From a virus (lineage: Duplodnaviria; Caudoviricetes): a stretch of 42,513 nt of DNA. The notes below the pieces were generated by a model. It was not told the DNA's origin, did not search any database, and saw only the letters and a list, made by a program, of their open reading frames with translations. A program made the position numbers and the translations under genes. How positions within the stretch are numbered: the stretch's first letter is position 1; every line of letters begins with the position of its first letter. Shown here piece after piece: positions 14,740-30,657 of this stretch. Location of the stretch: positions 1 through 42,513 of IMG/VR virus record IMGVR_UViG_3300049139_000057. One strand, written 5' to 3'.

Positions 14740-14740
14740 C

Positions 14741-15487: not shown

Positions 15488-15511
15488 CCCTCTCAACTTT
15501 CACCCGCCAGC

Positions 15512-15533
15512 GCGGGCACGCGAGCGTGCCCGC
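15512..15533 (+). promoter_or_regulatory. Hairpin upstream of endolysin RBS
   Basis: GCGGGCACGC-GA-GCGTGCCCGC inverted repeat. Confidence 0.45.
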
Positions 15534-15548
15534 AGACAGGAGGACATC

Positions 15549-16250
15549 ATGGCCTGGAGACTGGCCCGCAGCCTCAGCACACTCCGATCCGAAATCCTCG
15601 CGAAGCATCCCGGCACGACCGTGTGGACGATCGGCGACACCAGCCACCAGTCCGGCTACTCCGACCACAACCCCAACGCCGACCGTGTCGTGTGCGCGAT
15701 CGACGTCAAGGGCGATAAGGGCTTGAACCTCTCGGCGTTCGTTGCGCACCTGATCGCGTTCCCGCACCCGAACCTGCGCTACGTCATCTACAACCGCAAG
15801 ATCTACCAGCGCCGCAACGGCTTCGCGGCGCAGGACTACAACGGCGCGAACGCGCACCGGGACCACGTGCACGTGTCGGTGGGCAACGGCCCGGACGGGC
15901 GCAGCACCACCAACTACGACAACACCTCGTCATGGGGGCTAGTGAACCTCGGTACGCCTAAGCCCTCAAACCCGACCTCCCCCTCGAAGCCGACCGCGCC
16001 CAAGCCCTCCACTTCCGACTGGACTCAGGAGCTCATCATGTCCCTGCCCACTCTCCGCCGCGGCTCCGAAGGGGGCTCCGTGAAGCGCCTTCAGGGACTC
16101 CTGCACGCCGCCGGCCAGCGCGACTCTGCGATCGACGGCGACTTCGGGCCCGGCACCGAACGCGCCGTGAAGGATTTCCAGCGCGCCAAGAAACTGGGCG
16201 TCGACGGGATCGTCGGGCGCAACACCTGGACCAAGCTCATCAAGGGCTGA
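15549..16250 (+). CDS. Endolysin: putative Zn-peptidase domain plus C-terminal peptidoglycan-binding domain
   Basis: IGD..H...SDHNP...AIDV...HRDHVHVS; C-term LRRGSEG..VKRLQ...DGDFGPGTERAVKDFQ...DGIVG; AGGAGG RBS. Confidence 0.9.
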   Translation: MAWRLARSLSTLRSEILAKHPGTTVWTIGDTSHQSGYSDHNPNADRVVCAIDVKGDKGLNLSAFVAHLIAFPHPNLRYVIYNRKIYQRRNGFAAQDYNGANAHRDHVHVSVGNGPDGRSTTNYDNTSSWGLVNLGTPKPSNPTSPSKPTAPKPSTSDWTQELIMSLPTLRRGSEGGSVKRLQGLLHAAGQRDSAIDGDFGPGTERAVKDFQRAKKLGVDGIVGRNTWTKLIKG

Positions 16251-16281
16251 CTCACCAGCGATGCCGGTACAGGGGGTGATC

Positions 16282-16551
16282 GTGGCCGATGACGCACTCG
16301 GGCGCGAGATCAAGCAGCTGCGGGACGACACGAAGTCGGGGATCTCGGACATCAAGGCCGGCTTGGAGAAGCTCCTCCCGCGCGAGGTGTACGAGGCGCG
16401 CCATGACGCCCTCGTCCGCCGCGTGGACTCCCTCGAGAAGGACGTCGAGCGGGCCGAGGCCGACCGGACCACCATGCGGCGTTGGCTCATCTCAGCGGTG
16501 GTGCTGCCCGTGGCGTCCCTGATCGTGACGATCATTCTGGCTGTCACATGA
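16282..16551 (+). CDS. Lysis-cassette membrane protein (coiled coil plus C-terminal TM)
   Basis: Hydrophobic C-terminus WLISAVVLPVASLIVTIILAV; start uncertain (16261/16276/16282). Confidence 0.7.
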   Translation: MADDALGREIKQLRDDTKSGISDIKAGLEKLLPREVYEARHDALVRRVDSLEKDVERAEADRTTMRRWLISAVVLPVASLIVTIILAVT

Positions 16552-17261
16552 GCAGGGACGGCAGACGCAAGCTCGGCGACTGGGCGGTCGCCATGGTGGT
16601 GGCCCTGATCGCCATCGTGGTCACATGGGGCGCGGCCGAAGTCCGCCGCCAAGGCGACCAGTTGAACCGCCAGTCCGAGACGGTCGACGTCCTCGCGCAG
16701 GCTCTTGGGGATGAGCAGTCCGCCGCCGAGGCCCGCGGGGATGAACCCGTCGCCCCCAGCGCCGAAGACCTCATCGAAGACCCCGAGTACGCAGGCCCAC
16801 AGGGGCCTCCCGGGCCCGGCCCCACCGACGCCCAGGTGTACGCCGCGGTCGCCGACTACCTCCGGGACCACCCCGTCACCGCCGAGGGTCCTTCGGCTGC
16901 GGAGATCGCCGCGGCGGTCGCGGACTACCTCGCCGAGTACCCGCCCGGCCCCACCGCCGAGCAGGTCTCGTCCGCTGTCGCCGCCTACCTGACCGCCAAC
17001 CCGCCCGCGGATGGGCAGGACGGCGCGGACGGCGCTGATGGAGCTGACGGCGCGCCCGGCCCTCCCGGTCCCCAGGGGGAGCAAGGCGAGCAAGGGCGGC
17101 CCCCGACTGCCGAGGAGGTCGCCGCCGCCGTCCAGGAGTACATGGAGGCTCACCCCCTCCCGGTCTGCCCCGAAGGCAGTGCCCCCGAAGCGCACACCGT
17201 GCTGACCGGCTCAGGCCCGATCGACGCCGTGATCTGCGTCGAAACCGAATCCACCGAATAG
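16548..17261 (+). CDS. Membrane-anchored collagen-like repeat protein
   Basis: ATGA overlap; N-terminal TM, G-X-Y runs, four AAVA.YL..xP repeats. Confidence 0.8.
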   Translation: MSRDGRRKLGDWAVAMVVALIAIVVTWGAAEVRRQGDQLNRQSETVDVLAQALGDEQSAAEARGDEPVAPSAEDLIEDPEYAGPQGPPGPGPTDAQVYAAVADYLRDHPVTAEGPSAAEIAAAVADYLAEYPPGPTAEQVSSAVAAYLTANPPADGQDGADGADGADGAPGPPGPQGEQGEQGRPPTAEEVAAAVQEYMEAHPLPVCPEGSAPEAHTVLTGSGPIDAVICVETESTE

Positions 17262-17270
17262 AGGAGCACC

Positions 17271-17492
17271 ATGTTCAAGAAGATGTTCTGGAAGGACGCC
17301 TCCGAGCGCGCCGTGAAGACGGCCGCGCAGACGTCCGTGGCCCTGCTGACCGCCGACGGCGTGCTCGGCGTGCTCGACGTCGACTGGGGCCAGGGCGCCT
17401 CGGTTGTCGGACTGGCCACGCTCGTCAGCCTCCTGACCTCCGTGGCCTCCGCCCCTGCGGGCACCCCGGGGAATGCGTCGCTCACCAAGTAG
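17271..17492 (+). CDS. Holin (r1t-like)
   Basis: FWKDASERAVKTAAQT...SLLTSVAS signature, two TMs. Confidence 0.88.
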   Translation: MFKKMFWKDASERAVKTAAQTSVALLTADGVLGVLDVDWGQGASVVGLATLVSLLTSVASAPAGTPGNASLTK

Positions 17493-17507
17493 CCCACCGC
17501 ACTGACG

Positions 17508-17541
17508 CCCCCGTTCGCCTCACGGTGAGCGGGGGACTTTT
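17508..17541 (+). terminator. Intrinsic terminator ending the late operon
   Basis: CCCCCGTTCGCC-TCAC-GGTGAGCGGGGG stem (with G-U pairs) followed by ACTTTT. Confidence 0.7.
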
Positions 17542-17645
17542 CGCGTGCCCGCTTCACCCGTTCGGGTACACCCGTGCACGCGTCGCAACCGGATGGATAC
17601 GCACGACGTGTAGGCCTCGTTCCGCCCCCGAACGAAAGGCCCATC

Positions 17646-18323
17646 ATGAGCACCACGATCCGCCCTGCCCACTGGACCGCCATAGCCGTAGCGGCCCTCG
17701 TCGCCCTCGCCTGCTCCGCCCCCAGCACCGACGACTCCGGGGAGGACGGGAAGGCTCCCCAAGACGCCGGCGAGTACTTCGCCGAGGCCTACCCGCAGTT
17801 CGACCCGGTCGAGCACTCCGGGAACGGTGACGGGGTGATCGACCTCCCGGAGGGTGTCACGCAAGCGATGGTCACCGCCTCCTCCACCAGTGACTCCCAC
17901 TTCTCCATCAGTGCCCTGGACGCCAGCAACGAGTCCACCGGGGACCTCCTGGTGAACTCCATCGGCGCCTACGAGGGAGTCACCGCCCTGGGGATGCACG
18001 AGATCGGCGGGGAGCCCGTCCGACTCGAGATCGCCGCAGGAGGGGACTGGACGCTGACCCTCGCCCCGCTCTCCACTGCACCCGAACTGCCCGAGTCCGG
18101 CAAGGGTGATGGAGTGTTCCGGTACGAGGGGGATGCCGCCACGTGGGCGATCACCCACGACGGGGAGAACCATTTCGGGGTCAGCTACCATACCGACGCC
18201 GATTTCGAGATGGCCTTGCTGGTCAACGAGACCGGGGCCTACGAGGGTGAAGTGGCCGCGAGCGCCGGCCCTGGTCTGGTCACGGTCACCGCTGACGGGG
18301 CCTGGACGATCACCGCGAAGTAG
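17646..18323 (+). CDS. Lipoprotein (moron-like)
   Basis: GAAAGG RBS; signal peptide with lipobox LAC; internal duplication SGNGDGV / SGKGDGV. Confidence 0.8.
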   Translation: MSTTIRPAHWTAIAVAALVALACSAPSTDDSGEDGKAPQDAGEYFAEAYPQFDPVEHSGNGDGVIDLPEGVTQAMVTASSTSDSHFSISALDASNESTGDLLVNSIGAYEGVTALGMHEIGGEPVRLEIAAGGDWTLTLAPLSTAPELPESGKGDGVFRYEGDAATWAITHDGENHFGVSYHTDADFEMALLVNETGAYEGEVAASAGPGLVTVTADGAWTITAK

Positions 18324-18333
18324 ATCAAGCGCG

Positions 18334-18363
18334 ACGCCCCCGCTCCACTCGGAGCGGGGGCGT
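18334..18363. terminator. Bidirectional terminator between convergent genes
   Basis: Perfect 13-bp stem ACGCCCCCGCTCC-ACTC-GGAGCGGGGGCGT. Confidence 0.85.
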
Positions 18364-18373
18364 TTCGTCGTGC

Positions 18374-19159
18374 CTACTCGTCGGCGCGGACCATGTGGGC
18401 GAGTGCCGCGCCCATCCCGAGCACTGCCACCGGCAGACAAGCCACGCCAGCGGTGATCCACCACGGCGCGACACCGACTCCCGCGGCGGCCATCACGTGG
18501 TAGGCGATCTGCCCGGCAGCGCCAACAATCAGTGCGGCAATCGCTGAGGTTCGCGCCATCCTCCGTGCCTTGCCGCGGGCTTTACCGGACAGCCACACGT
18601 AGAGGGCGTAGGCGGCGTACACCTCCATGCCGATGGGCAACGTGATCGCGGTGTTGATGACGACCTGGTCAGCGATGCCGGGGAGGAGCCGGACGGGCCC
18701 GAACCCGGCGAGCTCCCCGAGGCCGACCCAGCCGCCCCAGATGGCGACGGCGGCGGGGGCCATGAGGAGCCACACCGGCCAGACCCTCACGGGCCGGAGC
18801 GACGCCTGCGGGTCCACGTCTGCCGTTGCGGGTTCCGCAATCGGGGCGCTCGGCTCTGCGATTTCCGCATACGGAGTTCGGGTCTCGGGGAGGCTGGGCG
18901 GGGTGGTCGCGGGGGGCAGGCTGCGCGCCTCAGCGTCGTCGGGCAGTCGCACGGTGACCGGGCTGGATCCTTCGGCGATCATCTTGCGGGCCTCTCGGAT
19001 GCGCAGCTGGCCCCAGCCCTCCTTGAGGCCGTACTTCGCGGCCAGCTTGGCGCCGGAGAGGGGCTTGCCGGATCGGTAGCTGCGGAGCCAGTCGTTGCGG
19101 GCTTTGGCCTGCCGCTGCTGTGCGGTGATGGCGGGCGTGCGGGTAGCAGTGTCTACCAT
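18374..19159 (-). CDS. DUF2637/SpdA-like membrane protein with N-terminal HTH-like segment
   Basis: AGGAG RBS; AIWGGWVGLG...INTAITLPIGMEVYAAYAL TM block. Confidence 0.7.
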   Translation of the reverse strand: MVDTATRTPAITAQQRQAKARNDWLRSYRSGKPLSGAKLAAKYGLKEGWGQLRIREARKMIAEGSSPVTVRLPDDAEARSLPPATTPPSLPETRTPYAEIAEPSAPIAEPATADVDPQASLRPVRVWPVWLLMAPAAVAIWGGWVGLGELAGFGPVRLLPGIADQVVINTAITLPIGMEVYAAYALYVWLSGKARGKARRMARTSAIAALIVGAAGQIAYHVMAAAGVGVAPWWITAGVACLPVAVLGMGAALAHMVRADE

Positions 19160-19186
19160 TGGCTTACTCCTGTTTCGGATGGGAGA

Positions 19187-19226
19187 GGGCGGCCCGGGGA
19201 TCTGTGGAAGGTGACCCGGGCCGCCC
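19187..19226 (-). promoter_or_regulatory. Intergenic stem-loop upstream of the DUF2637-like gene
   Basis: GGGCGGCCCGGG ... CCCGGGCCGCCC 12-bp inverted repeat. Confidence 0.55.
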
Positions 19227-19230
19227 GTTG

Positions 19231-19614
19231 CTATTCGGCGGCGGTCTTGGTGATGCGGTAGTAGCGACCGCCGATGGCGAGCACGTGGCCGATCGGCGCG
19301 CCCATGACTGCGGCCCTGGTGTCCTCGTCGGCGTCCACGATGTCGCAGAGGGCCTTGCGGGCGTCGTCGAGCGTCGCGACAGCGAGCCTCTCGGTGTAAT
19401 CGGTGAGAGCCGGTTCGCCGTCGTCGTCCGTGTCGGGCGCGCAGTACTCGATCCGATACGGCTTGGGCTTCAGGGAATCCAGGAACCGCTCGTGCTCGTA
19501 GACGGCACTGAGGCCGTAGCGCACGAGGGTGGCCACGGCGTCATCGAAAGTCGTGCCCTCGCGTTCGGCGTATGCGCGGATATCGGCAGTGATGGTTTCG
19601 GAGAAGGTCGTCAT
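19231..19614 (-). CDS. Hypothetical protein with RHH/CopG-like N-terminus
   Basis: GAAAGGA RBS; ITADIRAYAEREGTTFDDAVATLVRYGL. Confidence 0.7.
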   Translation of the reverse strand: MTTFSETITADIRAYAEREGTTFDDAVATLVRYGLSAVYEHERFLDSLKPKPYRIEYCAPDTDDDGEPALTDYTERLAVATLDDARKALCDIVDADEDTRAAVMGAPIGHVLAIGGRYYRITKTAAE

Positions 19615-19627
19615 GGTGGTCCTTTCG

Positions 19628-19649
19628 GGGCCCCGGTTGCCCGGGGCCC
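19628..19649 (-). promoter_or_regulatory. GCAA-tetraloop hairpin between genes
   Basis: Minus strand GGGCCCCGG-GCAA-CCGGGGCCC next to the RBS of the 19614 gene. Confidence 0.5.
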
Positions 19650-19656
19650 GGTGGCG

Positions 19657-20055
19657 CTATCGGTTGATCGAGAGGAGGTGCCTCGGTTCGCCGCCGACGA
19701 CGATCGCGGCGGCCCGGTCTTCGGGGGTGATGCTGCGGCGGTTCTCCTCGGGGATGAGGGTGAGGTCCTGGGCGACGTGCAGCCGGAGGATTTCGGCGTC
19801 CAGAACCTTGCGGTTGATTCCGGCGAGGAGGGGGCGGAGGTCGGTGAGCGACACCCAGCGTCCCATGGCGGGGGTGACCTGGAGGTAGGCGTCACGGATG
19901 CGGCCGGCGAGGTCCTGGGGGGCACTGCTCTGGTCGCTGGCCTCAAGGGCTTCGGTGAGGAGGCGTTCGACGGCGGCGGCCGGGTCCATGCCTCGCGCGG
20001 CGGCGTAGGCGTTGATGGTGGTGGTGAGGTTCTGGGGGATTTCGATGGCGGTCAT
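19657..20055 (-). CDS. Hypothetical protein with RHH-like N-terminus and winged-helix-like C-terminus
   Basis: GGAAGGAG RBS before ATG 20055; WVSLTDLRPLL...PEENRRSITPEDRAAA..GG domain. Confidence 0.7.
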   Translation of the reverse strand: MTAIEIPQNLTTTINAYAAARGMDPAAAVERLLTEALEASDQSSAPQDLAGRIRDAYLQVTPAMGRWVSLTDLRPLLAGINRKVLDAEILRLHVAQDLTLIPEENRRSITPEDRAAAIVVGGEPRHLLSINR

Positions 20056-20083
20056 GGGGGGGCTCCTTCCGGGGTACGCCATA

Positions 20084-20196
20084 AGCGTATCCCCTTGGTT
20101 GTCAATTAGCAACTCATGGCGGCATGGAACTGGAAATTCATCCGTTCGGATGAGGCGACCCTGATGGTTGCCAAACGACAACTGTAGCCATAGACT
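20084..20196. promoter_or_regulatory. Divergent promoters, each overlapped by a GTTG-N8-CAAC operator
   Basis: Minus TTGCTA-N17-TACGCT; plus TTGCCA-N17-TAGACT; boxes at 20098-20113 and 20167-20182. Confidence 0.65.
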
Positions 20197-20202
20197 GAGT
20201 AC

Positions 20203-20394
20203 ATGCCGAACATCCCACACGACCCCGAACTCCCGCCGCTCATGTCCGTCACCGAGGCCGCCGCCGAACTCGGCGTCACCCGGCAGGCGATCCTCAAGAT
20301 GGCCGCCAATGGGCAACTCCTCGGCCGGAAGGCTGGCAACACCTGGGTGTTCCGATCGGTCACCGTGAGAGCAGCCAAGCGCGCACGGGGGTGA
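20203..20394 (+). CDS. Small HTH DNA-binding protein (excisionase/HTH_17-like)
   Basis: LMSVTEAAAELGVTRQAILKM...G..WVF. Confidence 0.85.
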   Translation: MPNIPHDPELPPLMSVTEAAAELGVTRQAILKMAANGQLLGRKAGNTWVFRSVTVRAAKRARG

Positions 20395-20400
20395 ACACGA

Positions 20401-20430
20401 AGCGGCTCCCGGTTGTCACCGAGAGCCGCT
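20401..20430. terminator. Terminator hairpin between convergent HTH and DUF397 genes
   Basis: AGCGGCTC...GAGCCGCT stem. Confidence 0.6.
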
Positions 20431-20492
20431 ACGATCGTTACGGATGCGTCTCTAAGCGTCGTCCAGTGCCGTTCTGCCGGGTCGTAGACAGG

Positions 20493-20672
20493 TCAGCGCT
20501 GGGCGGCGCGCAACACGCTCACGAACTCTTCAGGCGCGAGATCGAACACCGGGGATTCTTCCCCCAGCTTCGAGTCGCGCACCTGGAATCCGCCTTCAGA
20601 GGCTCGGGCCTCGACGCAGTCGCCGTTGCCCTGGCTGCTCGAGCGGCTCGACTTCCGCCACTCTGTGTTCAT
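20493..20672 (-). CDS. DUF397 (BldB-like) protein
   Basis: WRKSSRS...CVE...VRDSK signature; ATGA overlap with XRE gene. Confidence 0.92.
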   Translation of the reverse strand: MNTEWRKSSRSSSQGNGDCVEARASEGGFQVRDSKLGEESPVFDLAPEEFVSVLRAAQR

Positions 20673-21499
20673 CTCAGGTACTCCTCTATCGGAATGGACA
20701 TGTCGCGAGCCGATTCGAAGATCTGCTCGTACATAGACACTAGGCGCGGCTGCTCGATGTAGCGACACCCATCCGCCCCATCAGTGAAGACGAAGGGTTC
20801 GCCGTCGTCACCGGGGTAGAGGAGGTTGAAGGCACCCGCCGTGGCGGCGTGGATCCTCGTGAGCACCCGGATCGACGCGCCGGCCATGCCGGCGACCTCG
20901 AGCAGGCGGGCGCACTGCTCGTCCCGAACGGCCGCGGGCATGGCCTCGAGGTAGTCGACGGCGGCCTTGCCGATCAGGAACTCTAGCCGCGGCAGCGGGC
21001 TGCGCGAATAGAGGAGCTGCTGCCGGTGCGTGCGCAAGCGCCGCCAGGACTCGGAGACTTCCTCTCGCATCGCGAGCTGCACCGACTGGAGCTGGCGGAG
21101 GTACTCCGGGGTCTGGAGGAGGCCGGGGATCACCTCGGTCTCGAGCACCCAGATCTGGCGGGCGGCCTGCTCGGTCTCGAGGAACAGCGGGATCCGGGGC
21201 CTGGAGGTCTCTCCGACAGAGATGTCGAAGTACGGCTCCCACCAGCCCCGTTCCTTTCCTCGAGCCGCCAGCGAGGTCAGGTGGCTCATCTCGGCGGAGT
21301 CGATGCCGTACAGCTCGCAGAGCTTCTCGACAACGATGGACCTGGTGGCCTGGGTCCCCTCTTCGATGCGTTGGATGGTTTGGCCCGAGTACCCGATAGC
21401 ACGGCCGGCCTCTGCGCGGGATAGTCCGCGGTCCTCGCGGTGCCGCTCGAAGGTCCGGCCCATGGTCTTGCGGGCGATGGTGGGCTGTGATTCTGACAT
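20669..21499 (-). CDS. XRE-family HTH + DUF5753 regulator (WhiJ/Scr1-like)
   Basis: N-terminal HTH (GLSRAEAG..IG.S..TIQRIEEG), RGWW, E.EVIPGLLQTPEY. Confidence 0.92.
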   Translation of the reverse strand: MSESQPTIARKTMGRTFERHREDRGLSRAEAGRAIGYSGQTIQRIEEGTQATRSIVVEKLCELYGIDSAEMSHLTSLAARGKERGWWEPYFDISVGETSRPRIPLFLETEQAARQIWVLETEVIPGLLQTPEYLRQLQSVQLAMREEVSESWRRLRTHRQQLLYSRSPLPRLEFLIGKAAVDYLEAMPAAVRDEQCARLLEVAGMAGASIRVLTRIHAATAGAFNLLYPGDDGEPFVFTDGADGCRYIEQPRLVSMYEQIFESARDMSIPIEEYLR

Positions 21500-21722
21500 G
21501 TGTCTAGCGTCGCATGACGGCTTCCATATTTCAAGCTCCACGACGGAGGCTCCAAAACGGATTGCGCGTTTCCTCTTCCCTAGCAGGTGGTTGACGCCTT
21601 ACCGTCGAACTAGGGCCGCCGACCACGACGCATCCAGTCATCCCGGTCGGCGGCCCGCACAACGAAGGCCCCGCCAGACGTGACTCTGCGGGGCCCTCGC
21701 AACACCAGAGATGGAGCCTCTG

Positions 21723-22034
21723 ATGAGCACACCCAGCGTACGAGAAACCAGCCCACCGGATCAAGACCCGAGCCCTGTGATCGCCTCATGGCGGACCGAG
21801 GGCTACCTGATGGCCCTCGAGGACACCGGCGACCGCGGAGCCCGCATCGTCGTTACCCCCCACGGGAAGCCGCCCAAGGAGTACGGGAGCATCCGCTACG
21901 ACGAGTCCCAATCCAGGCACCTCATCGACTGGAATCGGTCTGGGTGCCTCGCGCTCGAGCAGTACAAACGCGACCACTGGGACACGAAGTTCTATACGGC
22001 CATGGCGCGGCCGAAGATGGAGACCGGGTCATGA
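21723..22034 (+). CDS. Hypothetical protein divergent from the XRE gene
   Basis: GGAG RBS, coupled to next ORF. Confidence 0.6.
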   Translation: MSTPSVRETSPPDQDPSPVIASWRTEGYLMALEDTGDRGARIVVTPHGKPPKEYGSIRYDESQSRHLIDWNRSGCLALEQYKRDHWDTKFYTAMARPKMETGS

Positions 22035-22162
22035 TCCGTCGCTTGCTGTACCGTCTCCGCCGCCGCTCGAAGCAGCCGGCCACGTTCGAGGAGTGGCGGG
22101 CTTGGCAGGAGCGGGAGTTCCGCGAGAGGCTCCGCAGATACCACCAGGAGCCGCTGCCGTGA
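22031..22162 (+). CDS. Small basic hypothetical protein (43 aa)
   Basis: ATGA and GTGA overlaps on both sides. Confidence 0.5.
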   Translation: MIRRLLYRLRRRSKQPATFEEWRAWQEREFRERLRRYHQEPLP

Positions 22163-22365
22163 ACGCCGCCGAGGAAACCCAGATGATGCACGCCGCGGAT
22201 GAAGACGGGTGGTGCGGGTTCCATCTCCGCCACTACGGGCTCCACATCCCGGCCGGCACATGCGCGCCGTTCCTGCTGGCGACCGCGGTCCTCCGTGCCC
22301 GCAGGCAGGCTCAGGCGAAACGGATTCGGCCGGCGTACTTGCGGCCGTCGTCCCGGTCCTCCTAG
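22159..22365 (+). CDS. Small His/Cys hypothetical protein
   Basis: GTGA overlap; H...WCGFH..H...C possible metal site. Confidence 0.55.
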   Translation: MNAAEETQMMHAADEDGWCGFHLRHYGLHIPAGTCAPFLLATAVLRARRQAQAKRIRPAYLRPSSRSS

Positions 22366-22379
22366 GCCTGCCTCCCGAG

Positions 22380-22664
22380 GGGCCGCCGCACCGATGAGGG
22401 GGCGGCGGCCCACTCCCGGCCCCGCGTGGTGGACGAGCCCCCAGGCTCGTGCGGGGCCGGGAATCACTCACAAGGGGGATGCCGCCGCCTCAAGTCGATC
22501 TTGGGCGGGTATCCCGAATAGTCGTCCGTCGCCGAGTGGCGCGGATGGAGCGGCCCGGCGCTGATGGGGGTTGGTCAGCCGGGCCGCTTTCCTACAGTGC
22601 ACAATGGAGAGGGGAACCTGCTACGGCAGGAACAAGGCCGCCGCCCGGTCTCGTCCGGGCGGCG
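22380..22664. other. Non-coding array of about seven tandem hairpins (possible structured RNA plus terminators)
   Basis: Consecutive inverted repeats between convergent operon and integrase. Confidence 0.5.
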
Positions 22665-22667
22665 TGT

Positions 22668-24206
22668 CTATGCCCACACGATCTTGATGCGGGTCGTGTC
22701 GAACCGCTGATAGGGCGGGGCTGCACGCTTGATGACGACTTGCTTCACGAACAGCCGCAGGAACGCGCGCTGCTCCTGGATCTCCATCAGCGACCAGGCC
22801 CGCGGGTCCTTCAGGGCCTCGGCGTCGAACCCCTCTGGCGGCGGCGGGGTCGACGCCAGCTCGGCCCGGGCGCGCGCCTCGTCCTGCTCCAACCCGGCGC
22901 GCATCGCCTTCCACTCCTCGGTGGTCACCTCGCGAGCGCCCCACATCTCCGCCAGCTCCGCCCGGCGTACGTCGATCGCACCCAGTTCGTCTGACAGCTC
23001 CTTACGACGCTCGGCGTAGTCGTCCCTGAGGAACGCATCAAGGCGACCCGGCTTCGAAATCTCCTCGAACAGCAACTCCACCACCCGGTCCTCCAGGGGT
23101 TGCCCCTGGATGCCGACGCATCCCTTTCCGCCGCGGTTGGGATGGCACGTGTAGTAGGGAATGACGTCGCCCTTCCTGGTCTTGCGCTGGGCCGCCGTCA
23201 ACGGTGCGCTGCAAACCGCGCAGACGGCGAGCCCGGCCGACAGCAGGTATCGCCGCACGGACCTGCCGGTGTGGCGATCGGGGTCCATCGGGTAGATGCG
23301 GCCGTCTGACCCCTGAAGGAGGCGAGGGGCCCCGAAGTGCGCGCGGAGCCGGTGGTGGGTCTCTTCGGAGAAGATGGGGTCCCAGTTCCCCTTCCCGACG
23401 ACTTCGCCCCGGTAGATCCGTAGCCCGGCATTGGTGGGGCTGAGCAGCGCCTTGCGGATTGTGGCCGCGGTGAGGGCGGTGTCTTCGGTCATCGGCTCGC
23501 CGGTGGCGATGTCAATGACCGGCTCACCACTGATGGGGTCAACGATCTTGCGGCGCCGCACCCCCGTGAATCCCCGGGCCTTGAACTCGGTGAGGACCCG
23601 CGCGAGCCCCCACCCCGAGTTCAGGACCATGTCCGCTGCCCACCGGAGCGCTTCGGCCCGCTCGGGGATGATCTCGTATGTCCGCGGCTTCCCGGGCGGG
23701 TGGACGTGCCGGTAGGCGAACGGCACTGCCGCCGGCGGGAGCCCGCGCATCGCATCGTCGCGGACGCGGTTGTTGACCCGCCTCTTGACGCGGCGGACCT
23801 CCCCTGCGCCGAGTACCGCTTTCAGGCCAGCCACGTCGTCGTCGACGCGGACGATGCCGTCGTTGCGGGTGTGGATCTCGTGGATTCCAGCGTCGTCGAG
23901 CTCGATGGCGACGGTGAACCACTCCAGTTCCTGGCGCACGAACCGGTACTGCTCGATGCACCAGATATGGGCGACCATGCCGTCGCGCAGCCATCTGCGC
24001 AGGCGTTCGAACTCGGGCCTGACCACCTTGGGGTCGGCGGCGGTGATGTGGTTGTCGGCGAAGACCTCGACGGGCATCCCAGGCCAGTGCTGCGCGGCGT
24101 AGGCGCGGCCGTAGCGCTCCTGAACTTCAACGCCTTCGCGGCGTCCGGACTTGTCGATGGTGATGCGGCAGTAGATCGCCACCACGGCATTGGGGGACGG
24201 GCTCAT
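22668..24206 (-). CDS. int: Large serine-family recombinase (integrase) with Thr at the catalytic Ser position
   Basis: YCRIT.D catalytic motif, RP.F motif, PFAY recombinase domain start, CxxC...YxC...C zinc ribbon, coiled coil. Confidence 0.9.
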   Translation of the reverse strand: MSPSPNAVVAIYCRITIDKSGRREGVEVQERYGRAYAAQHWPGMPVEVFADNHITAADPKVVRPEFERLRRWLRDGMVAHIWCIEQYRFVRQELEWFTVAIELDDAGIHEIHTRNDGIVRVDDDVAGLKAVLGAGEVRRVKRRVNNRVRDDAMRGLPPAAVPFAYRHVHPPGKPRTYEIIPERAEALRWAADMVLNSGWGLARVLTEFKARGFTGVRRRKIVDPISGEPVIDIATGEPMTEDTALTAATIRKALLSPTNAGLRIYRGEVVGKGNWDPIFSEETHHRLRAHFGAPRLLQGSDGRIYPMDPDRHTGRSVRRYLLSAGLAVCAVCSAPLTAAQRKTRKGDVIPYYTCHPNRGGKGCVGIQGQPLEDRVVELLFEEISKPGRLDAFLRDDYAERRKELSDELGAIDVRRAELAEMWGAREVTTEEWKAMRAGLEQDEARARAELASTPPPPEGFDAEALKDPRAWSLMEIQEQRAFLRLFVKQVVIKRAAPPYQRFDTTRIKIVWA

Positions 24207-24212
24207 GGAGTG

Positions 24213-24254
24213 ATCCTAGCCCATGCTTTGTTCTTAAAACAACATGTGGCAGGA
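24213..24254. promoter_or_regulatory. Candidate attP overlapping the int promoter
   Basis: AT-rich imperfect inverted repeat just upstream of int; minus-strand TTGTTT-N18-TAGGAT. Confidence 0.5.
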
Positions 24255-24318
24255 CATTGACCGTCAAGCAGTAAGCGAGCGCGGCGACCCCGGAATGAAC
24301 GTTTCCCCAGTGTACGGC

Positions 24319-24353
24319 AGAGGCCCCGTTCCCTGATTGGGAACGGGGCCTCT
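24319..24353. terminator. Terminator of the repressor-side leftward transcript
   Basis: 15-bp perfect stem AGAGGCCCCGTTCCC-TGATT-GGGAACGGGGCCTCT. Confidence 0.85.
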
Positions 24354-24359
24354 CGATGT

Positions 24360-24854
24360 CTACTCCGGCTCGCCCGGTGGTTCCTCCGGGTGGCCGTCCT
24401 TCATGTACAGGTCTTGCAGTGCCTCGACCGCTCCGGCCAACTCCTCGACCGCCCGGACGACTTCTTCGAGCCGGTCGGCGAGATCCTTGATGGCCCCGCG
24501 ATTCTCACCGATCTCTTCGCTCAGTTCGGAGAGCCGGTTTCCGATCTCCTCGAACGCGGCGAGGACTCGTTCTTGGCGCTGTTGAGCCTCGCCTCGGGCT
24601 TCGGCGATGGCTTCCACGAGCGATTTCTGCGACGATCGGATGCCCTGCAAGACGCACCACAGCCAGTAGGCCATGGTGGTGCAGGCTGCGACGATGGATA
24701 CGGTTGCGGTGGTGCTGCGGTGGTGGGAGCCTCCTGGGAGTTGGGAGTGGATGATGAAGACCGTCGCTGCGGTGGCGGCGAGGCAGATGCCGATGATGGT
24801 GTGCCATGCGGCGGGCACTGGGATTGTTACGGTCAGTTTCTCGGGTGCAGTCAT
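24360..24854 (-). CDS. Membrane protein (2 TM plus coiled coil) in immunity region
   Basis: Two hydrophobic helices then heptad repeats. Confidence 0.65.
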   Translation of the reverse strand: MTAPEKLTVTIPVPAAWHTIIGICLAATAATVFIIHSQLPGGSHHRSTTATVSIVAACTTMAYWLWCVLQGIRSSQKSLVEAIAEARGEAQQRQERVLAAFEEIGNRLSELSEEIGENRGAIKDLADRLEEVVRAVEELAGAVEALQDLYMKDGHPEEPPGEPE

Positions 24855-25019
24855 GGCGGGAACCTTGCTTTTGCACGACAGGACGTGGGGGTCAGTCAGT
24901 GCCGGATTACCCAGTGTAGCCATAACATGTGACGTATGCCATCATCCGAACGGATAGCACGTCTGCCCGCCGCGTTGCAACCTCGCACCCGATAGTTGAC
25001 CTGTCGGGTTCCCGACACC

Positions 25020-25673
25020 TCAGTGTCCCAACTCTTCGTCGCTCTCTTCGAAGACTTGCCGCAACAGGGCCTCGGCGGCGCGCTCCATCTGCTGAGCAGT
25101 GAGGCGGTTGCTGGCGGCCATCCGCAGGGACTGCTCCGCGGCCTCCACCCGCTCCAGGAGCTCGCGACGACGACGCTCAGAGGTCCCCTCATGCTCTGCC
25201 AGCTCACGAGTCCGGCGGATGTACTCCCCTAGGTCCTTTGTGGCAGGCGTGCCGGCTGTGGAGCCGTCCTTGCCCCAGCCGAGCTTCTCAGTGGCGACGG
25301 CGTAGTCGACCTTCAAACCTTCGCAGATCCTTCGGATCGTCGCGGAGCGGGGCGATTTCGGCGCCTGCGCGGGATCGAGGTAGCGATAGAAGTCCTTCCG
25401 TGACAGCCCCGCCTTATCGGCGATCTTCGATCGCGACCAGCCCTGGGCTTCCTTCTCCTCGACGACTCCGCCGAACCACTGCGCCACCCGCGTCTGTTCG
25501 AGTGTGGGGGCGGCCTCCGGCTCCGGAGTGTCACGTTTATGTGTCACCACCACATGGTATGAGCGGGAGCCCTTGGTTCGCTGTCGGGTAGGCGACGTGT
25601 CACGTTTACGTCTCTCCTCAGCGGCCCTCCATCGCTCTCGACGACGGACTTCGCTGTGCCGGGGTTTAGCCAT
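25020..25673 (-). CDS. Immunity repressor (XRE HTH)
   Basis: GWSRSKIADKAGLSRKDFYRYL...TIRRICEGL HTH; divergent from Cro-like gene; start uncertain. Confidence 0.75.
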   Translation of the reverse strand: MAKPRHSEVRRRERWRAAEERRKRDTSPTRQRTKGSRSYHVVVTHKRDTPEPEAAPTLEQTRVAQWFGGVVEEKEAQGWSRSKIADKAGLSRKDFYRYLDPAQAPKSPRSATIRRICEGLKVDYAVATEKLGWGKDGSTAGTPATKDLGEYIRRTRELAEHEGTSERRRRELLERVEAAEQSLRMAASNRLTAQQMERAAEALLRQVFEESDEELGH

Positions 25674-25794
25674 CGCACCATGATATGACACATTCATGTG
25701 ACACCAACTCATACGAACGGTTGGCACAACCTGACCGTTCGGTGGATGTCACATTCATGTCACACCCTCCTAAGGTTGTGACATGAATGCCACA
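25529..25794. promoter_or_regulatory. Five 18-bp operator-like repeats and divergent promoters of the genetic switch
   Basis: Copies at 25529, 25598, 25686, 25747 and 25777 (reverse); -10 boxes TATCAT (minus) and TAAGGT (plus). Confidence 0.75.
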
Positions 25795-25989
25795 GCCAAC
25801 GGCCGGTCGACCTATACCGATGAGGCCGGCCGAGTGCACGTTCCTCTCAGGGAAGCCCAGCGCCGGCTGGGCATCTGCCGGAAGACCGCCTACCGCTGGC
25901 GGGACAAGGGATGGCTGACGTTCGTCAAGCACGACAGCCGCATTTGGTGCCCGGAATCTGAGCTGGAGGCCAGCAATGACCGCAGTTGA
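25783..25989 (+). CDS. Cro/excisionase-like HTH protein
   Basis: LREAQRRLGICRKTAYRW..KG.L; first rightward early gene. Confidence 0.8.
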   Translation: MNATANGRSTYTDEAGRVHVPLREAQRRLGICRKTAYRWRDKGWLTFVKHDSRIWCPESELEASNDRS

Positions 25990-26167
25990 CGGCGACCGCC
26001 CCGCCGCCCCGCCGCGACCGACGAACCCTTCCGACGGACCTCCGAGGCTCGGTCTCGACGACCCGGTACGCCTCTCCCGCGCCTCCCACATCCTCCAGAC
26101 GGCGCTCGCTCGCCACGGCCTCACCGTCTCCGATCTCCGGCCTCCCAAGCACGTCCGCGCCGCCTAG
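25976..26167 (+). CDS. Small hypothetical protein
   Basis: GGAGG RBS; overlaps upstream gene. Confidence 0.55.
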   Translation: MTAVDGDRPAAPPRPTNPSDGPPRLGLDDPVRLSRASHILQTALARHGLTVSDLRPPKHVRAA

Positions 26168-26349
26168 AACTCCCGCCGGCATGGCCCGGCCGGGTGCGTC
26201 GCGATCGGGGGACGCGGCGACAACTTCATAGGCCCCTCCGGCCACGGGGGACGGAGGGGCACCACAAGCCAGAAACGAGAGATGCCCCAGCCGCTACCAC
26301 GGCTGAGGCGCGATCTCCCGGGACACATGCAGAAAGAAGGAGTCCCAAA

Positions 26350-26628
26350 GTGATCACCTACCAGCCTACCGACACCGCAGAGGCACAGCAAGATCCGGCC
26401 CCGGTGACCCGCGTCTACGGCCACCCGCTCGAGCAGGTCGCCCGCGTCGACGCCCTGGACTGCCAGGCCGCCGCGACGTACCGGATCGGCGACCGCCTCG
26501 TGTGCGACTACCACCGACTCGAGGTCGCCCACGCCCTGTGGGAGGCCGACGCCCGCCAGCCCATGTTCGACGTGGAAGCGAGCCTGGGCCACCGCTGCGG
26601 CGAGACCTTCCCGGAGGTGGCGCGATGA
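26350..26628 (+). CDS. Hypothetical protein (Cys/His)
   Basis: AAGGAG RBS, GTG start. Confidence 0.6.
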   Translation: MITYQPTDTAEAQQDPAPVTRVYGHPLEQVARVDALDCQAAATYRIGDRLVCDYHRLEVAHALWEADARQPMFDVEASLGHRCGETFPEVAR

Positions 26629-26924
26629 ACCAGCACTCGATGCAGGACCTCGAGGACCTGCTGGCGTCCGCGAAACGGCACGCCGCGGCGTGGGAATCGC
26701 GCGACCTCACCACCGAGCAGGGCCGGTCCGAAGCGTACGACCACCTCGCGCACACCTTCGGGGCGCTGGAGCGCCTGTCGGCCGCCGCGAACGGCGTCCG
26801 CAGCCAGTATGCCTCGCAGCTGGTGGAGCACCAGACCGACCGGGCCGATGCCCTCAGGGGCGTCTGGGACGAGGCCGTCGGCGACCGCGAGTACGGGTTC
26901 AACCCGGACGGGGGTGCGCGATGA
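26625..26924 (+). CDS. Hypothetical protein
   Basis: GGAGG RBS, ATGA coupling. Confidence 0.65.
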   Translation: MNQHSMQDLEDLLASAKRHAAAWESRDLTTEQGRSEAYDHLAHTFGALERLSAAANGVRSQYASQLVEHQTDRADALRGVWDEAVGDREYGFNPDGGAR

Positions 26925-27109
26925 GCACCGTGATCTCGCGCTTCCTGTTCATCGGCCTGATGGTCCTCACCGTCGCCTCGGCTGTCGCCCTGGCGGGTCG
27001 CATCGACGGGTTGCCCCTGATGGCCACCGCCGTCCTTCGGGTCGCCCTGGTCCTGCTCACCGCCTACCTGTGGGTCGAGTGGTACCGGGCTGATCGGAGG
27101 GCGTCGTGA
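26921..27109 (+). CDS. Small 2-TM membrane protein
   Basis: ATGA coupling; two hydrophobic segments. Confidence 0.65.
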   Translation: MSTVISRFLFIGLMVLTVASAVALAGRIDGLPLMATAVLRVALVLLTAYLWVEWYRADRRAS

Positions 27110-27411
27110 CCGACCTCCACATGATCCTCGCCGCTTCCGTCGTCTCCACCGTGATCGTCCTGACGGCCATCGCGGTCGCCGCGAAGCGCTCCCGGTCCCG
27201 CTGGGCCGATGAACCCACTGACCTCCTGCCGCTGCTGGAGGACCCGCTGGGTCTGCACTTCGACGAGGCCGAGCGTCTGCTGCGCGGCGAGACGGATCCC
27301 GACATCGCGGCGATCTACGACCGCCGGGCCCTCCGCCCGTACGAGGACGAGCTCCAGACGCTCTCCATCCGACGACTCACGCGCCGCCTCGCGCGGCTCG
27401 ACCAGACCTGA
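27106..27411 (+). CDS. Membrane-anchored hypothetical protein
   Basis: GGAGG RBS, GTGA coupling, N-terminal TM. Confidence 0.65.
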   Translation: MTDLHMILAASVVSTVIVLTAIAVAAKRSRSRWADEPTDLLPLLEDPLGLHFDEAERLLRGETDPDIAAIYDRRALRPYEDELQTLSIRRLTRRLARLDQT

Positions 27412-27471
27412 AACCGCGCGGGGTCGCGCCAGCTGCTCGGCGCGACCCCGCGGCCACAGAAGGAGACCGAC

Positions 27472-27597
27472 ATGAACAACGACCACTGGACGTACGACGA
27501 CTGCGAGAGCTGCGACCAGCCTCTGAGCCGAGACGAGGCCCGCTCGGGCATCTGCGACGACTGCTGGCAGGCCCGCGACGAGGCAGGAGAGGAGTAG
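27472..27597 (+). CDS. 41-aa zinc-ribbon microprotein (not in ORF track)
   Basis: AAGGAG RBS; CESC...CDDC. Confidence 0.65.
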   Translation: MNNDHWTYDDCESCDQPLSRDEARSGICDDCWQARDEAGEE

Positions 27598-27697
27598 TGA
27601 CCCCGCCTCGCCGCCGCCGTCCCGGCCGCCGCGGAGGACGTAAGCACACGCCTCCCCCGCCGCCGCCCGAACCCACCGACACCCAGCAGGAGGACCA

Positions 27698-28474
27698 GTG
27701 AGCACCGACAATCTCGCGCAGTTCAAGTTCCCCGAGACGTCCCAGGACATCCGCTCCTTCGCCGCTGGCGGCGAGCACTGGTTCGTCAACGGGGACGTGT
27801 GCGCCGCGATCGGCATCAAGAAGCCGCGCGACGCGTTCGCCCAGCTCGACGACGACGAGAAGGCGTCCATGGCCGTGGACACGAATCGCGGACCCCGGAA
27901 GATGGCCGTCGTCAGCGAGGCCGGCCTCTACGCGCTGATGCTGATCAGCCGCTCCGAGAAAGTGAAGCCGTTCCGGCGGTGGATCACCCACGAGGTCATC
28001 CCCGCGCTCCGCCGCGACGGGATGGTCGTCAACGAGAAGGCGATCACCGACGAGCAGATCGAAGCTGGTCGGGAGAAGCTGTCCGCGCTCGCGCAGCGCC
28101 GCTTGGAAGAGCGGATGGACTACAAAGCCATCCTGCACTCCCTCAAGCTCGGCGGGGCCGTCGCCGACGAGTACCGCATGGTCCAGAACACGCTGTACGT
28201 CCGCCTGTTCGGCGCTACGGCCTCCCGCATCCGCGAGACCCGCGAACAGCTCACCGGCGACCGGCTCAAGCGGTCCGAGGGGTTCACGAAGGAGTCCTCG
28301 AAGGTCGCGAAGAACTACCTCACCGAGGACGAGCTGAAGACCCTCAACTCGACCGTGCTGGCGACGTTCGCGCAGATCCAGCTGCACTACCCGAACGGCG
28401 CCAACGCGGGCCAGATGATCGCCGCGATCAACCGCGCCGCCGACCTCATGGACGTTCGGGCGGTGGCGGCATGA
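27698..28474 (+). CDS. Bro-N antirepressor-like protein with RhuM-like C-terminus
   Basis: WFVNGDVC, VSEAGLY.L...SR, FRRWITHEVIPALRRDG; C-term VAKNYLTEDELKTLN. Confidence 0.88.
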   Translation: MSTDNLAQFKFPETSQDIRSFAAGGEHWFVNGDVCAAIGIKKPRDAFAQLDDDEKASMAVDTNRGPRKMAVVSEAGLYALMLISRSEKVKPFRRWITHEVIPALRRDGMVVNEKAITDEQIEAGREKLSALAQRRLEERMDYKAILHSLKLGGAVADEYRMVQNTLYVRLFGATASRIRETREQLTGDRLKRSEGFTKESSKVAKNYLTEDELKTLNSTVLATFAQIQLHYPNGANAGQMIAAINRAADLMDVRAVAA

Positions 28475-28812
28475 GGACCATCCGCATCTACGAGCTCGAC
28501 ATCACTTATCCCGAAGGGGCGGACAAGGACTGCGACGGCGACTGGGAAGACAGCGGGACCCGCGAACCCGACGGCTCTCCCGGCTCCTACTGGGTCCGCC
28601 GGTTCCCCGCCGAGCGCCGGTTCCTGTCCCGCTCAGGCGCCGAGGCCCGCGCCCGCCGCCTGGCCGCGCTCGGCTGCACCGTCGAAGTCTGCCGCTCCGA
28701 GCCGATCGAGTTCAAGACCGAGCCGATCGCGCACTTCGACGCCCTCCCCCCGGCCGATCCCGAGCCGGAATCCACCGTCCCGTGGGACGACCCGAACTTC
28801 AAGCCCTTCTAG
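28471..28812 (+). CDS. Hypothetical protein
   Basis: ATGA coupling. Confidence 0.65.
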   Translation: MRTIRIYELDITYPEGADKDCDGDWEDSGTREPDGSPGSYWVRRFPAERRFLSRSGAEARARRLAALGCTVEVCRSEPIEFKTEPIAHFDALPPADPEPESTVPWDDPNFKPF

Positions 28813-28821
28813 GAGACAGCC

Positions 28822-29169
28822 ATGACCGACATCCTGAACGCCCCCAAGTGGCACACCACCGCCGAGGACGAGACCACCGAACTCCGCCGCCGCCTGGCCG
28901 ACGCCGAGCTGCGCGCGATGAACGCCATCGCCGCTGAAGACGTCGCCCAGTTCGCGTTCGAGACCGCGAAGCGCCGCGCCGACACCCTCGAGACCGTCCT
29001 GCAATCCGTCCTCGTGGAGTTCGTCATCGAACCCATCACCGGCGAAGCCCCAGAGTCCGTCCTGGACTCGATCGTGGACGGCCTCCTGGACGACCTCGAC
29101 AGCGGCCTGGCCGTCGACGAACTCCCCGAGGTGGCCCGCCGGCTCCTGAACGGAGCGCAGGAGCGGTGA
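28822..29169 (+). CDS. Hypothetical protein
   Basis: AGGAG RBS. Confidence 0.65.
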   Translation: MTDILNAPKWHTTAEDETTELRRRLADAELRAMNAIAAEDVAQFAFETAKRRADTLETVLQSVLVEFVIEPITGEAPESVLDSIVDGLLDDLDSGLAVDELPEVARRLLNGAQER

Positions 29170-29258
29170 ACGAGGACGAGCAGGAGAACCCGCCCGAGGA
29201 GCCCGTGATCTACGGGCCCGACGGATTCACGCCCATCAACCAGAAAGCGCCGTTCTGA
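29166..29258 (+). CDS. 30-aa microprotein
   Basis: GTGA overlap upstream, TGATG overlap with ATPase gene. Confidence 0.45.
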   Translation: MNEDEQENPPEEPVIYGPDGFTPINQKAPF

Positions 29259-30172
29259 TGACCAACCCGTTCGCACCCGCCACCCGCGAAGCCGCGAAGG
29301 CCCGGATCGCCCTGTGCGGCCCCGCAGGTTCGGGGAAGACGTACACCGCCCTGACCCTCGCTACCGCGCTCGCCGACAAGGTCGCCCTCGTCGACACCGA
29401 GCACGGCTCCGCGTCGAAGTACGCGCCCGGCAAGTCCGGCGACGGGTTCGTGTTCGACACCGTCACGCCCGCCAAGTTCGACCCCCGCGGCCTCGCCGAG
29501 ATCCTCGGGCACGCCGCGGCGGCCGGCTACGGCGCGGTCGTCGTCGACTCCCTCACCCACTACTGGTCTGGCCTCGGCGGGATCTTGGAGCTGGTCGACC
29601 AGTCCAACTCCGGCGGTGCCAACCGCAACCAGTTCGCCGGGTGGAAGACCGTCCGCCCCTGGGAGCGGGCCCTGATCGAAGCGCTCCTGGCGTTCCCTGG
29701 GCACGTCATCGTCACCATGCGCACCAAGACGGAGTGGGTGATCGAGGAGAACGACCGCGGGAAGAAGACCCCCCGGAAGGTCGGCATGAAGCCCGAGCAG
29801 CGCGAAGGCATCGAGTACGAGTTCGACATCGTCGGCGACCTGGACCAGGAGAACACCCTGGTCGTCACCAAGTCCCGCTGCGTCGACCTCTCCAATGCCG
29901 TCATCCCGCGGCCGGATGCCGACCTGGCGAAGCAGATCCAGGACTGGCTGGACGGCGGTGTGGAGCTGCCCGACGCCAACGAGTACCGCGACAAGGCCGT
30001 GGAAGCCGCCGCCGACGTCGACGCCCTCCGTGCCCTGCACGCCGAGGTGAAGCGCCGCCAGATGCTCGGCGCGCAGATCGAGAACGAGAACGGCGACATC
30101 GAATCCCTCGGCGAACTCATCACCCGCTACGGCGCCGAGGCGCGCGCCGCCAAGAACGGAGCCACCGAATGA
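29258..30172 (+). CDS. Sak4-like AAA ATPase (single-strand annealing recombinase)
   Basis: GPAGSGKT Walker A, DTE, VVVDSLTH, QREGIEYEFD motifs. Confidence 0.88.
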   Translation: MTNPFAPATREAAKARIALCGPAGSGKTYTALTLATALADKVALVDTEHGSASKYAPGKSGDGFVFDTVTPAKFDPRGLAEILGHAAAAGYGAVVVDSLTHYWSGLGGILELVDQSNSGGANRNQFAGWKTVRPWERALIEALLAFPGHVIVTMRTKTEWVIEENDRGKKTPRKVGMKPEQREGIEYEFDIVGDLDQENTLVVTKSRCVDLSNAVIPRPDADLAKQIQDWLDGGVELPDANEYRDKAVEAAADVDALRALHAEVKRRQMLGAQIENENGDIESLGELITRYGAEARAAKNGATE

Positions 30173-30657
30173 CCGAAATCCAGGACCTCGCCCGCCGCAC
30201 CGTCGCCGTCGGGCTCGTCGCCAACCAGACCAAGGACATCGAGAAGGAACTCAAGGCCGAGCTGCTGGAGGAGTGCAAGCGGACTGGCACCCGCACGCTC
30301 GACGTGGTCGACGAGGACGGCACGAAACTCGCCACCGTCTCCAAGGCCGTGGGGAAGGCGAAGGCCGCCGTGGTCGACGCGGACGCGTTCGAGGCGTGGG
30401 TGACCAAGAACTACCCCGACGCGGTCACCACCATCACCGTCATCGACTCGGACTTGAAACTGCGCCTCCTGAACGCCGCCACGGCCGCCGGCGACCCTGT
30501 CGACGTCGCCACCGGCGAGGTCATCCCGGGAGTGGAGATCGCGCAGGGCTCGACGTACATCACGGCCCGGCCCACGCCTGAGGCGAAGGCCAAGATGCGC
30601 GGCCTCCTCGCGGGTTCGCCCCTGCTGGAGCTGGCCGGGGGTGAGACCGGTGAGTGA
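30169..30657 (+). CDS. Recombination-module hypothetical protein
   Basis: ATGA coupling; TGEVIPGVE motif. Confidence 0.7.
   Translation: MTEIQDLARRTVAVGLVANQTKDIEKELKAELLEECKRTGTRTLDVVDEDGTKLATVSKAVGKAKAAVVDADAFEAWVTKNYPDAVTTITVIDSDLKLRLLNAATAAGDPVDVATGEVIPGVEIAQGSTYITARPTPEAKAKMRGLLAGSPLLELAGGETGE

Follow-up and report, generated by a model that had tools for sequence, protein, structure and literature searches.

Site-specific recombinases are classed by their nucleophile, tyrosine or serine. A conservative change of Ser9 in Gin is reported to be inactive. The serine enzymes cleave all four strands, form covalent links to the 5' ends, rotate and re-ligate, with the nucleophile carried on an exposed surface loop (PMC2794168, excerpt). 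Residues Y6, R8, S10, D36, R68 and R71 are essential in Tn3 resolvase, whereas S39 and D67 are not; the general acid-base chemistry of the family is called unconfirmed (PMC2794168, excerpt). The large serine integrases of phages, such as Bxb1, phiC31, SPbeta SprA and Listeria LI/A118 (PHROG 95), place a catalytic domain, a recombinase domain, a zinc ribbon and a coiled coil in this order. In serine-integrase attP sites the zinc-domain motif lies at arm positions 16–24, and in attB the motif is shifted 5 bp inward (PMC3783163, excerpt).

A threonine bonded to DNA is known from an unrelated protein, the Streptomyces terminal protein Tpg, in which T114 carries the nucleotide (Thr114-dCMP) and threonine and serine are interchangeable (PMC3572947, excerpt). 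Tpg is a precedent for a phosphodiester bond between a threonine hydroxyl and DNA, although this bond, unlike that of an integrase, is made through polymerase priming and not by reversible transesterification of duplex DNA. No report of a recombinase with a threonine nucleophile was found in the literature searched, which was full text and thin for subscription papers and old scans. The excerpts of PMC3029335, PMC6007550 and PMC11722253 contain nothing on threonine, and the main text of PMC10083194, as excerpted, is without the words 'threonine' and 'catalytic'; the recombinase tables of that paper could hold threonine members.

The stretch of DNA analysed here (the window, 42,513 bp) carries phage genes for head, tail, lysis, anti-repressor, replication and terminase functions, and one integrase among the 65 ORFs scanned (Table 1). 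An earlier note on this DNA had drawn attention to the integrase, in which threonine stands at the nucleophile position, and had offered two readings, namely an integrase that forms phosphothreonine or a catalytically dead recombinase reused as a DNA-binding factor.

Results

The window integrase and its two threonines

The gene is unbroken over 512 codons, without a stop or frameshift, and both motifs described in the earlier note, YCRIT with Thr16 and DNHIT with Thr55, are present with ACC as the threonine codon. The protein scores 31.1 bits against PF00239 (cut-off 23.3) and matches the phrog_95 integrase family with an E value of 3.6e-58. In its predicted structure (mean pLDDT 90.6, from a 141-row alignment) the resolvase-type catalytic domain matches the folds of 3bvp, 3g13 and 1zr2, and the top matches to the full-length model are the serine integrases 9dxf, phiC31 (9rah), Bxb1 (9iu2) and 4kis. 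Domain order and fold are those of the phage integrases named above; sequence identity is 12–17% to solved integrases and, among annotated phages, about 30% to the nearest ones, the integrases of Gordonia phages Utz and CarolAnn. The zinc ribbon with four cysteines and the coiled coil, previously read from the letters, are both recovered. The recombinase domain, said to be preserved on account of its PFAY motif, is indeed seen in the predicted structure, but it deviates in having Ala164 where 74 of 79 homologues have glycine (the alanine is private to the window protein within its clade), and PF07508, the Pfam Recombinase family, gives no score on the window protein (P0001) or on P0004. This family is on record for six of the seven clusters closest to these two.

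Table 1. Features of the window, with positions counted from its first letter
Feature	Position	Strand	Basis
Circular (66-bp terminal repeat) genome of a temperate long-tailed phage	1..42513	.	Gene content
Large serine recombinase (integrase) gene, 512 aa	22668..24206	-	PF00239, PF13408, phrog_95, fold matches
Coiled coil, two predicted helices (aa 398-452)	22851..23015	-	Structure model
Zinc ribbon (aa 324-379; C329, C332, C354, C363)	23070..23237	-	PF13408, four Cys
Catalytic domain and helix E (aa 8-153), with Y12, R14, Q29, D51, R63, R88, R91	23748..24185	-	Pfam, model, conservation
Thr55 (ACC), second conserved Ser of the D-x-x-x-S motif, S39-type by motif position	24042..24044	-	Alignment
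Thr16 (ACC), aligned to the nucleophile Ser (Tn3/gamma-delta S10); likely nucleophile	24159..24161	-	Alignment
Predicted attP, imperfect inverted repeat around CA/TG at 24250-24251	24220..24281	.	Match to Glycomyces arms
Repressor-like gene beyond attP	25020..25727	-	Homologue 38% identical at the opposite end of the Glycomyces prophage

Thr16 aligns without a gap with the serine of YCRVS in the solved recombinase 3g13 (clade profile, E = 0.0011), and among the 79 proteins of the first search, query included, this position is serine in 70, threonine in 7 and a gap in 2. By motif position, residues Y6, R8, D36, R68, R71, Q19 and R45 of Tn3/gamma-delta resolvase correspond to Y12, R14, D51, R88, R91, Q29 and R63 of the window protein. 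Unlike in these resolvases, S10 and the S39-type serine are replaced by threonine, the latter change falling where the Tn3 residue is non-catalytic, and the D67 position is tyrosine or phenylalanine. Because the namesake serine of the family (Y-x-R-x-S) is absent, the window protein is a variant of the large serine recombinase family and not an ordinary member.

The letters themselves are sound. Between 24000 and 24500 no alternative letter occurs in the contigs of two soil runs, with depths of about 200 and 25, either of which may have yielded the window. Other ACC codons of the gene, at positions 113, 283 and 258, align to threonine in 78, 67 and 50% of the serine-type rows, so that ACC is not recoded to serine here.

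Distribution of threonine at positions 16 and 55

The seven threonine rows of the first search comprise the query itself plus six of the seven clusters nearest to it; P0002 (69% identity), the remaining one, has serine at both places. All seven further cluster members read also carry both threonines, and this lineage (lineage 1) comprises 14 proteins in 7 clusters at 90% identity, 61–67% identical to the window protein and some of them near-identical to one another. The co-occurrence of YxRxT and DxxxT, for which the earlier note had proposed a clade-wide check, holds in 14 of 14, and the worry that threonine might be private to this phage or a sequencing error is answered by its presence throughout the clade and in the contigs of both runs. 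With columns 16 and 55 removed, the threonine proteins and P0002 form one branch (bootstrap 98–100), in which P0002 is nested among the threonine proteins (bootstrap 95–99); a clade of threonine proteins only is not rejected (p-AU 0.107). The position of P0002 suggests a double return to serine.

Sampling was widened with a profile search (best 150 of 6,911) and a search with P0126 (33 hits). Lineage 2, with the motifs YTRET...DNDIT, consists of P0126, P0143, P0236 and P0244, which are 43–72% identical among themselves and 32–38% identical to the window protein. A single origin of the two lineages is rejected (p-AU 1.3e-55, 30 rows), and by these trees the threonine pair was gained independently at least twice, in keeping with the view that a diverged lineage, and not random decay, is at hand.

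Among 219 proteins of 430–600 residues (42 of 261 were dropped for length), positions 16 and 55 read Thr/Thr in 18, Ser/Thr in 26, Ser/Ser in 155, Thr/Ser in none and otherwise in 20. Thr16 is never seen without Thr55, and Thr55 alone is common. As the association amounts to three independent contrasts (sign test, p = 0.25), a coupling of the two residues is a lead only. Position 16 changes state 3 times among 210 rows and position 55 changes 20 times; the rarity of threonine at position 16 suggests a cost. P0166, nested in the whole-protein tree, was considered as a second reversion and rejected, since it is the sister of lineage 2 in the catalytic-domain tree. A repeat search with alignment A1 added no protein. 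We also note that a sister lineage of the threonine clade (L100, at G556:C362, and P0009) combines Ser16 with Thr55, possibly an intermediate state, and that the residue between the motif arginine and the nucleophile position, mostly hydrophobic in relatives, is glutamate in P0091 (R-E-S) and in all four proteins of lineage 2 (R-E-T).

The remaining active site

Residues Y12, R14, Q29, D51, R63, R88 and R91 are invariant in 18 of 18 threonine proteins of both lineages and, by motif position, match five of the six essential Tn3 resolvase residues (Y6, R8, D36, R68 and R71). Each of these alone is weak evidence, since about half of the catalytic-domain columns are invariant anyway (76 of 143 in lineage 1 and 89 of 143 in the other group). 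The motif arginine and the glutamine of VEVQ, R14 and Q29, are kept as described before, and so is the arginine pair of YRFVR, R88 and R91; what does not stand is the pair's setting as a peculiarity of this protein. The serine-type actinobacterial subfamily around it (P0002, Streptomyces P0011, Stackebrandtia P0015, Amycolatopsis P0014 and the prophage integrase of the Glycomyces genome G028; 44–69% identity) has the same motifs, with serine in place of threonine at position 16, and reads EQ[YFST]RxxR, so that EQxRxxR for the DRxxR of other phage serine integrases is a subfamily trait. Asp occurs at position 87 in only 15 of 79 homologues.

Ser20, four residues from Thr16 and a nucleophile candidate of the earlier note, is not conserved: in lineage 1 the position is serine in 11 proteins, phenylalanine in 2, one of them the integrated Glycomyces protein described below, and glycine in P0008, and lineage 2 has no residue aligned to it. 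The only Ser, Thr or Tyr columns kept in the lineage 1 catalytic domain are Y12, T16, Y32, T55 and T113, among which we see no alternative nucleophile. The proposed dN/dS check gives 0.35 (Nei-Gojobori) for the sole DNA pair, which is probably an overestimate because fourfold sites are near saturation (49% identical, versus 40% at saturation). Conservation along the protein is highest in the catalytic domain (79%, versus 70–73%).

An integrated relative in Glycomyces artemisiae

A scan of species-representative genomes gave 12 loci, one of them close, in Glycomyces artemisiae (G001:C9). The protein at this locus, WP_106365828.1, is 66% identical to the window protein and carries both threonines (YARIT and DNNIT), encoded in this isolate genome by the same codons as in the window gene. 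It belongs to a prophage of 65,235 bp, in which a scan of 58 ORFs shows genes for head, tail, lysis and replication, and which splits a host S8 peptidase (subtilase) gene; the 5' part of the peptidase gene lies directly upstream of the Thr/Thr gene, whose start lies 40 bp in from the junction. Only the 2 bp CA are common to both junctions (G001:C9 48229-30 and 113464-65), and removal of the prophage in silico restores an 808-aa peptidase frame. Reconstructed from the junctions, attB comprises G001:C9 48199-48230 and 113466-113495, and attP comprises 113434-113465 and 48231-48260. The 5' part of the peptidase gene has a long match in 25 other genomes of the 33 searched in the genus, with open frames of 805–1335 aa, and in all 19 of these that were read the gene runs uninterrupted across the break point. 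The conservation of CA at the break carries no information on selection acting at this site, because CA begins a conserved Gln codon. The prophage ends form an imperfect inverted repeat centred on CA (15 of 30 arm positions), and a 2-bp overlap centred in an inverted repeat is the signature of a serine integrase.

The G. artemisiae genome has five resolvase, three recombinase and three tyrosine-integrase family matches, of which only the Thr gene lies inside the element. At the other four resolvase-family loci, similarity to the Thr gene is marginal or absent (best E = 2e-5 over 61 aa), and the clade profile finds a single match in this genome. A tyrosine integrase was rejected as the agent of the insertion, given that PF00589 matches lie on other contigs only and that the shared core is just 2 bp; assignment to a class of catalytically dead homologues was rejected likewise, as the catalytic residues other than T16 are invariant and the gene adjoins a precise junction. 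From the arrangement we infer that the Thr/Thr protein itself made this insertion. Since the nearest empty site is still 95% identical in DNA, this insertion probably happened long after threonine had spread through the clade.

The suggestion that the threonine clade might flank integrated prophages is borne out by this one case; a further integrated example, for the window phage, lineage 2 or any other Thr protein, was not found. Matches occur in 22 of 101 genomes sampled at the family level, 5 of 33 at the genus level, 2 of 401 at the order level and 12 of 401 at the class level. Of 33 loci read from these samples, 30 gave a motif and 3 did not, and Thr16 is found in the G001 locus only. Viral contigs searched with P0001, A1, P0126 and two degenerate patterns gave no loci, and with alignment A3 two distant ones; metagenome contigs searched with A1 and a pattern gave none. 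Annotated phages (146 records, all below 60% identity) and plasmids (6 records) hold no close relative. A tblastx comparison of the window with the Glycomyces prophage was dominated by GC-rich noise and disregarded. The Glycomyces prophage also carries an RtcB-type RNA ligase (L017:10934-12388), and an FtsK/SpoIIIE-like gene (L015:15361-17622) lies in a 16-kb block beside its integrase.

The genome G028, of the same genus, provides a serine-type control. A 41.6-kb prophage in it (G028:C6:30970-72608) has a Ser/Ser integrase (46% identity) some 80 bp away from the junction. The junctions have a core of 6 bp in common, and the symmetry of the arms is highest about TG, which reads CA along the gene (12 of 30). 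The gene beside the junction and the CA/TG-centred site of the threonine enzymes are both found here, and the serine and threonine versions show the same layout. The portal, tape measure and terminase of the G028 prophage are 33–47% identical to those of the window.

A predicted attP beside the window gene

When the two Glycomyces arms are compared with all 84,902 window positions, the top position is 24250-24251, which precedes the integrase start codon by 43 bp, scores 32 of 60 with the core unscored and has CA at its centre; the next unrelated site scores 30 of 60, just 2 below. Symmetry within the intergenic gap also peaks at this dinucleotide (15 of 30). As this gap takes up 153 of 42,513 bp, and CA or TG stands at 11% of positions, the match in both place and core is unlikely to arise by chance (about 4 in 10,000). 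The four attP arms of window and Glycomyces share AT at positions 5-6, AA at 15-16 and AAG at 22-24. Of the two attB arms, one has AAG at 17-19 and the other has it at 14-16. Read in the direction of the integrase gene, the core dinucleotide is TG in the window and CA in Glycomyces.

The predicted site resembles those of phage serine integrases in lying next to the gene as an inverted repeat of about 50–60 bp and in having conserved bases within arm positions 14-24, a span that takes in the zinc-domain motif positions 16–24 (PMC3783163, excerpt). The Glycomyces relative resembles them in its 2-bp crossover core and insertion inside a host gene; what sets the enzymes apart is the threonine in place of the nucleophile serine. 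The window and the Glycomyces prophage have the gene order repressor, att, integrase in common. The contigs of the two runs (X1 and X2) pass through the predicted attP without a break, and neither a joint nor a loose end is seen at 24250, although contigs drop rare variants; a third run (X3), with only a small share, was left out. A scan of 22300-26300 for sigma-70-type promoters found none. Between the predicted attP and the stop of the ORF at 24360-24923 lies a perfect 14-bp hairpin (24320-24352), possibly a terminator; a similar hairpin arm precedes the right junction in Glycomyces, and the window hairpin is absent from the list of a consensus scan.

Discussion

We place at roughly 0.8 the probability that the window protein is an active integrase, which would likely bond to DNA as phosphothreonine through Thr16. 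Of the two readings in the earlier note, this is the one favoured by the precise Glycomyces insertion and by the predicted att site beside the window gene. The enzyme would attack DNA with the Thr16 hydroxyl, pass through a phosphothreonine–DNA intermediate and integrate the phage. To judge from the sequence, dimers would bind the inverted repeat upstream of the gene and the host attB. By the family mechanism, a tetramer would then cut four strands around CA with a 2-nt stagger, each Thr16 becoming joined to a 5' phosphate with activation by R14, R88 and R91, and subunit rotation and re-ligation would yield attL and attR. The CA shared by the junctions of the relative would be the footprint of such an integration, with the Thr/Thr protein as its presumed agent. 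An exposed nucleophile loop could leave room for the additional methyl group of threonine. As Thr16 has never been seen without Thr55, we speculate that Thr55 may help the site to hold this methyl group. The main weakness of the active reading is its single integrated example; the private Ala164 of the window protein also counts against it, and the conserved arginines could be kept for DNA-phosphate binding alone.

Several explanations compete with an active Thr16. The threonine proteins could be inactive or nearly so, their prophages being integrated in trans, at the same att sites, by the serine-bearing sister of a co-infecting phage. A sister of this kind exists in P0002, a single integrated threonine case is known, and the S10-equivalent mutants of characterised serine recombinases are reported to be all inactive (PMC2794168, excerpt). 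No such helper is present in the lysogen genome, however, where the other recombinases are unrelated to the one clade-profile match, and threonine clusters outnumber serine sisters seven to one, at 61–67% identity, with intact frames and under a dN/dS of 0.35; reliance on a rare helper is not expected to preserve them, and we regard this explanation as unlikely. More unlikely still is a dead recombinase kept as an autoregulator, or as an inhibitor of related integrases, at its own upstream repeat. The DNA-binding domains are intact, and binding so close to the start codon could repress the gene. Against a dead binder stands that the only changed catalytic residue became another hydroxyl residue, twice independently, that the central dinucleotide is conserved, which serves strand exchange and not binding, and that the window has no second high-scoring copy of the site; the 2-bp-core insertion and the agent that integrated the prophage would also be left unexplained. 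Mutants such as S10A and S12A likewise have no serine at the nucleophile position, but the threonine enzymes differ from them in keeping a hydroxyl, an invariant remaining site and, in a relative, an integration footprint.

Were the enzyme active through another residue (Ser20, Thr55 or a tyrosine), Thr16 would be structural. Ser20 lies near in the window protein and T55 accompanies T16 in 18 of 18, yet the former is replaced or unaligned as described above, most tellingly by phenylalanine in the integrated protein, and the S39-type residue has no catalytic part in Tn3 resolvase and is itself threonine in the 26 Ser/Thr rows; we consider this very improbable. That the threonine stems from sequencing error, from ACC being recoded or from a recent private mutation is hardly credible with the same codons in the contigs of two runs and in an isolate genome, threonine in 14 proteins, and ACC matching conserved threonine elsewhere in the gene.

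A working natural threonine enzyme, if true, would break both the serine/tyrosine rule and the reported inactivity of serine mutants. More broadly, and with odds that we set slightly short of even, natural threonine recombinases may constitute a third nucleophile class besides tyrosine and serine, having evolved at least twice in actinobacterial phage integrases, enabled each time by threonine at the S39-type position and revertible to serine. The secondary-alcohol nucleophile might alter the rates of cleavage and re-ligation. Natural threonine/serine pairs (69% identity) would then offer material for the unconfirmed acid-base chemistry of the family, and a testable set is in hand with WP_106365828.1 and the attB and attP read from the isolate genome. 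Integrases with threonine here should not be dismissed as dead in annotation or in the mining of genome-engineering tools.

Other features of the phage

Further downstream on the integrase strand, an ORF at 20669-21541 (-) resembles a Sco1979-like HTH regulator (NF058600, below cut-off), with a 46%-identical homologue in the Glycomyces prophage, and is followed by a small ORF at 20493-20768 (-) with a WRKSSRSS motif, which we take to be DUF397-like. A tail assembly chaperone gene and an overlapping ORF at 7527-8658 (+), which may be the usual frameshifted pair, precede the tape measure gene. Three adjoining ORFs at 34753-37253 (+) resemble DNA methyltransferases (phrog_111, phrog_67 and phrog_363).
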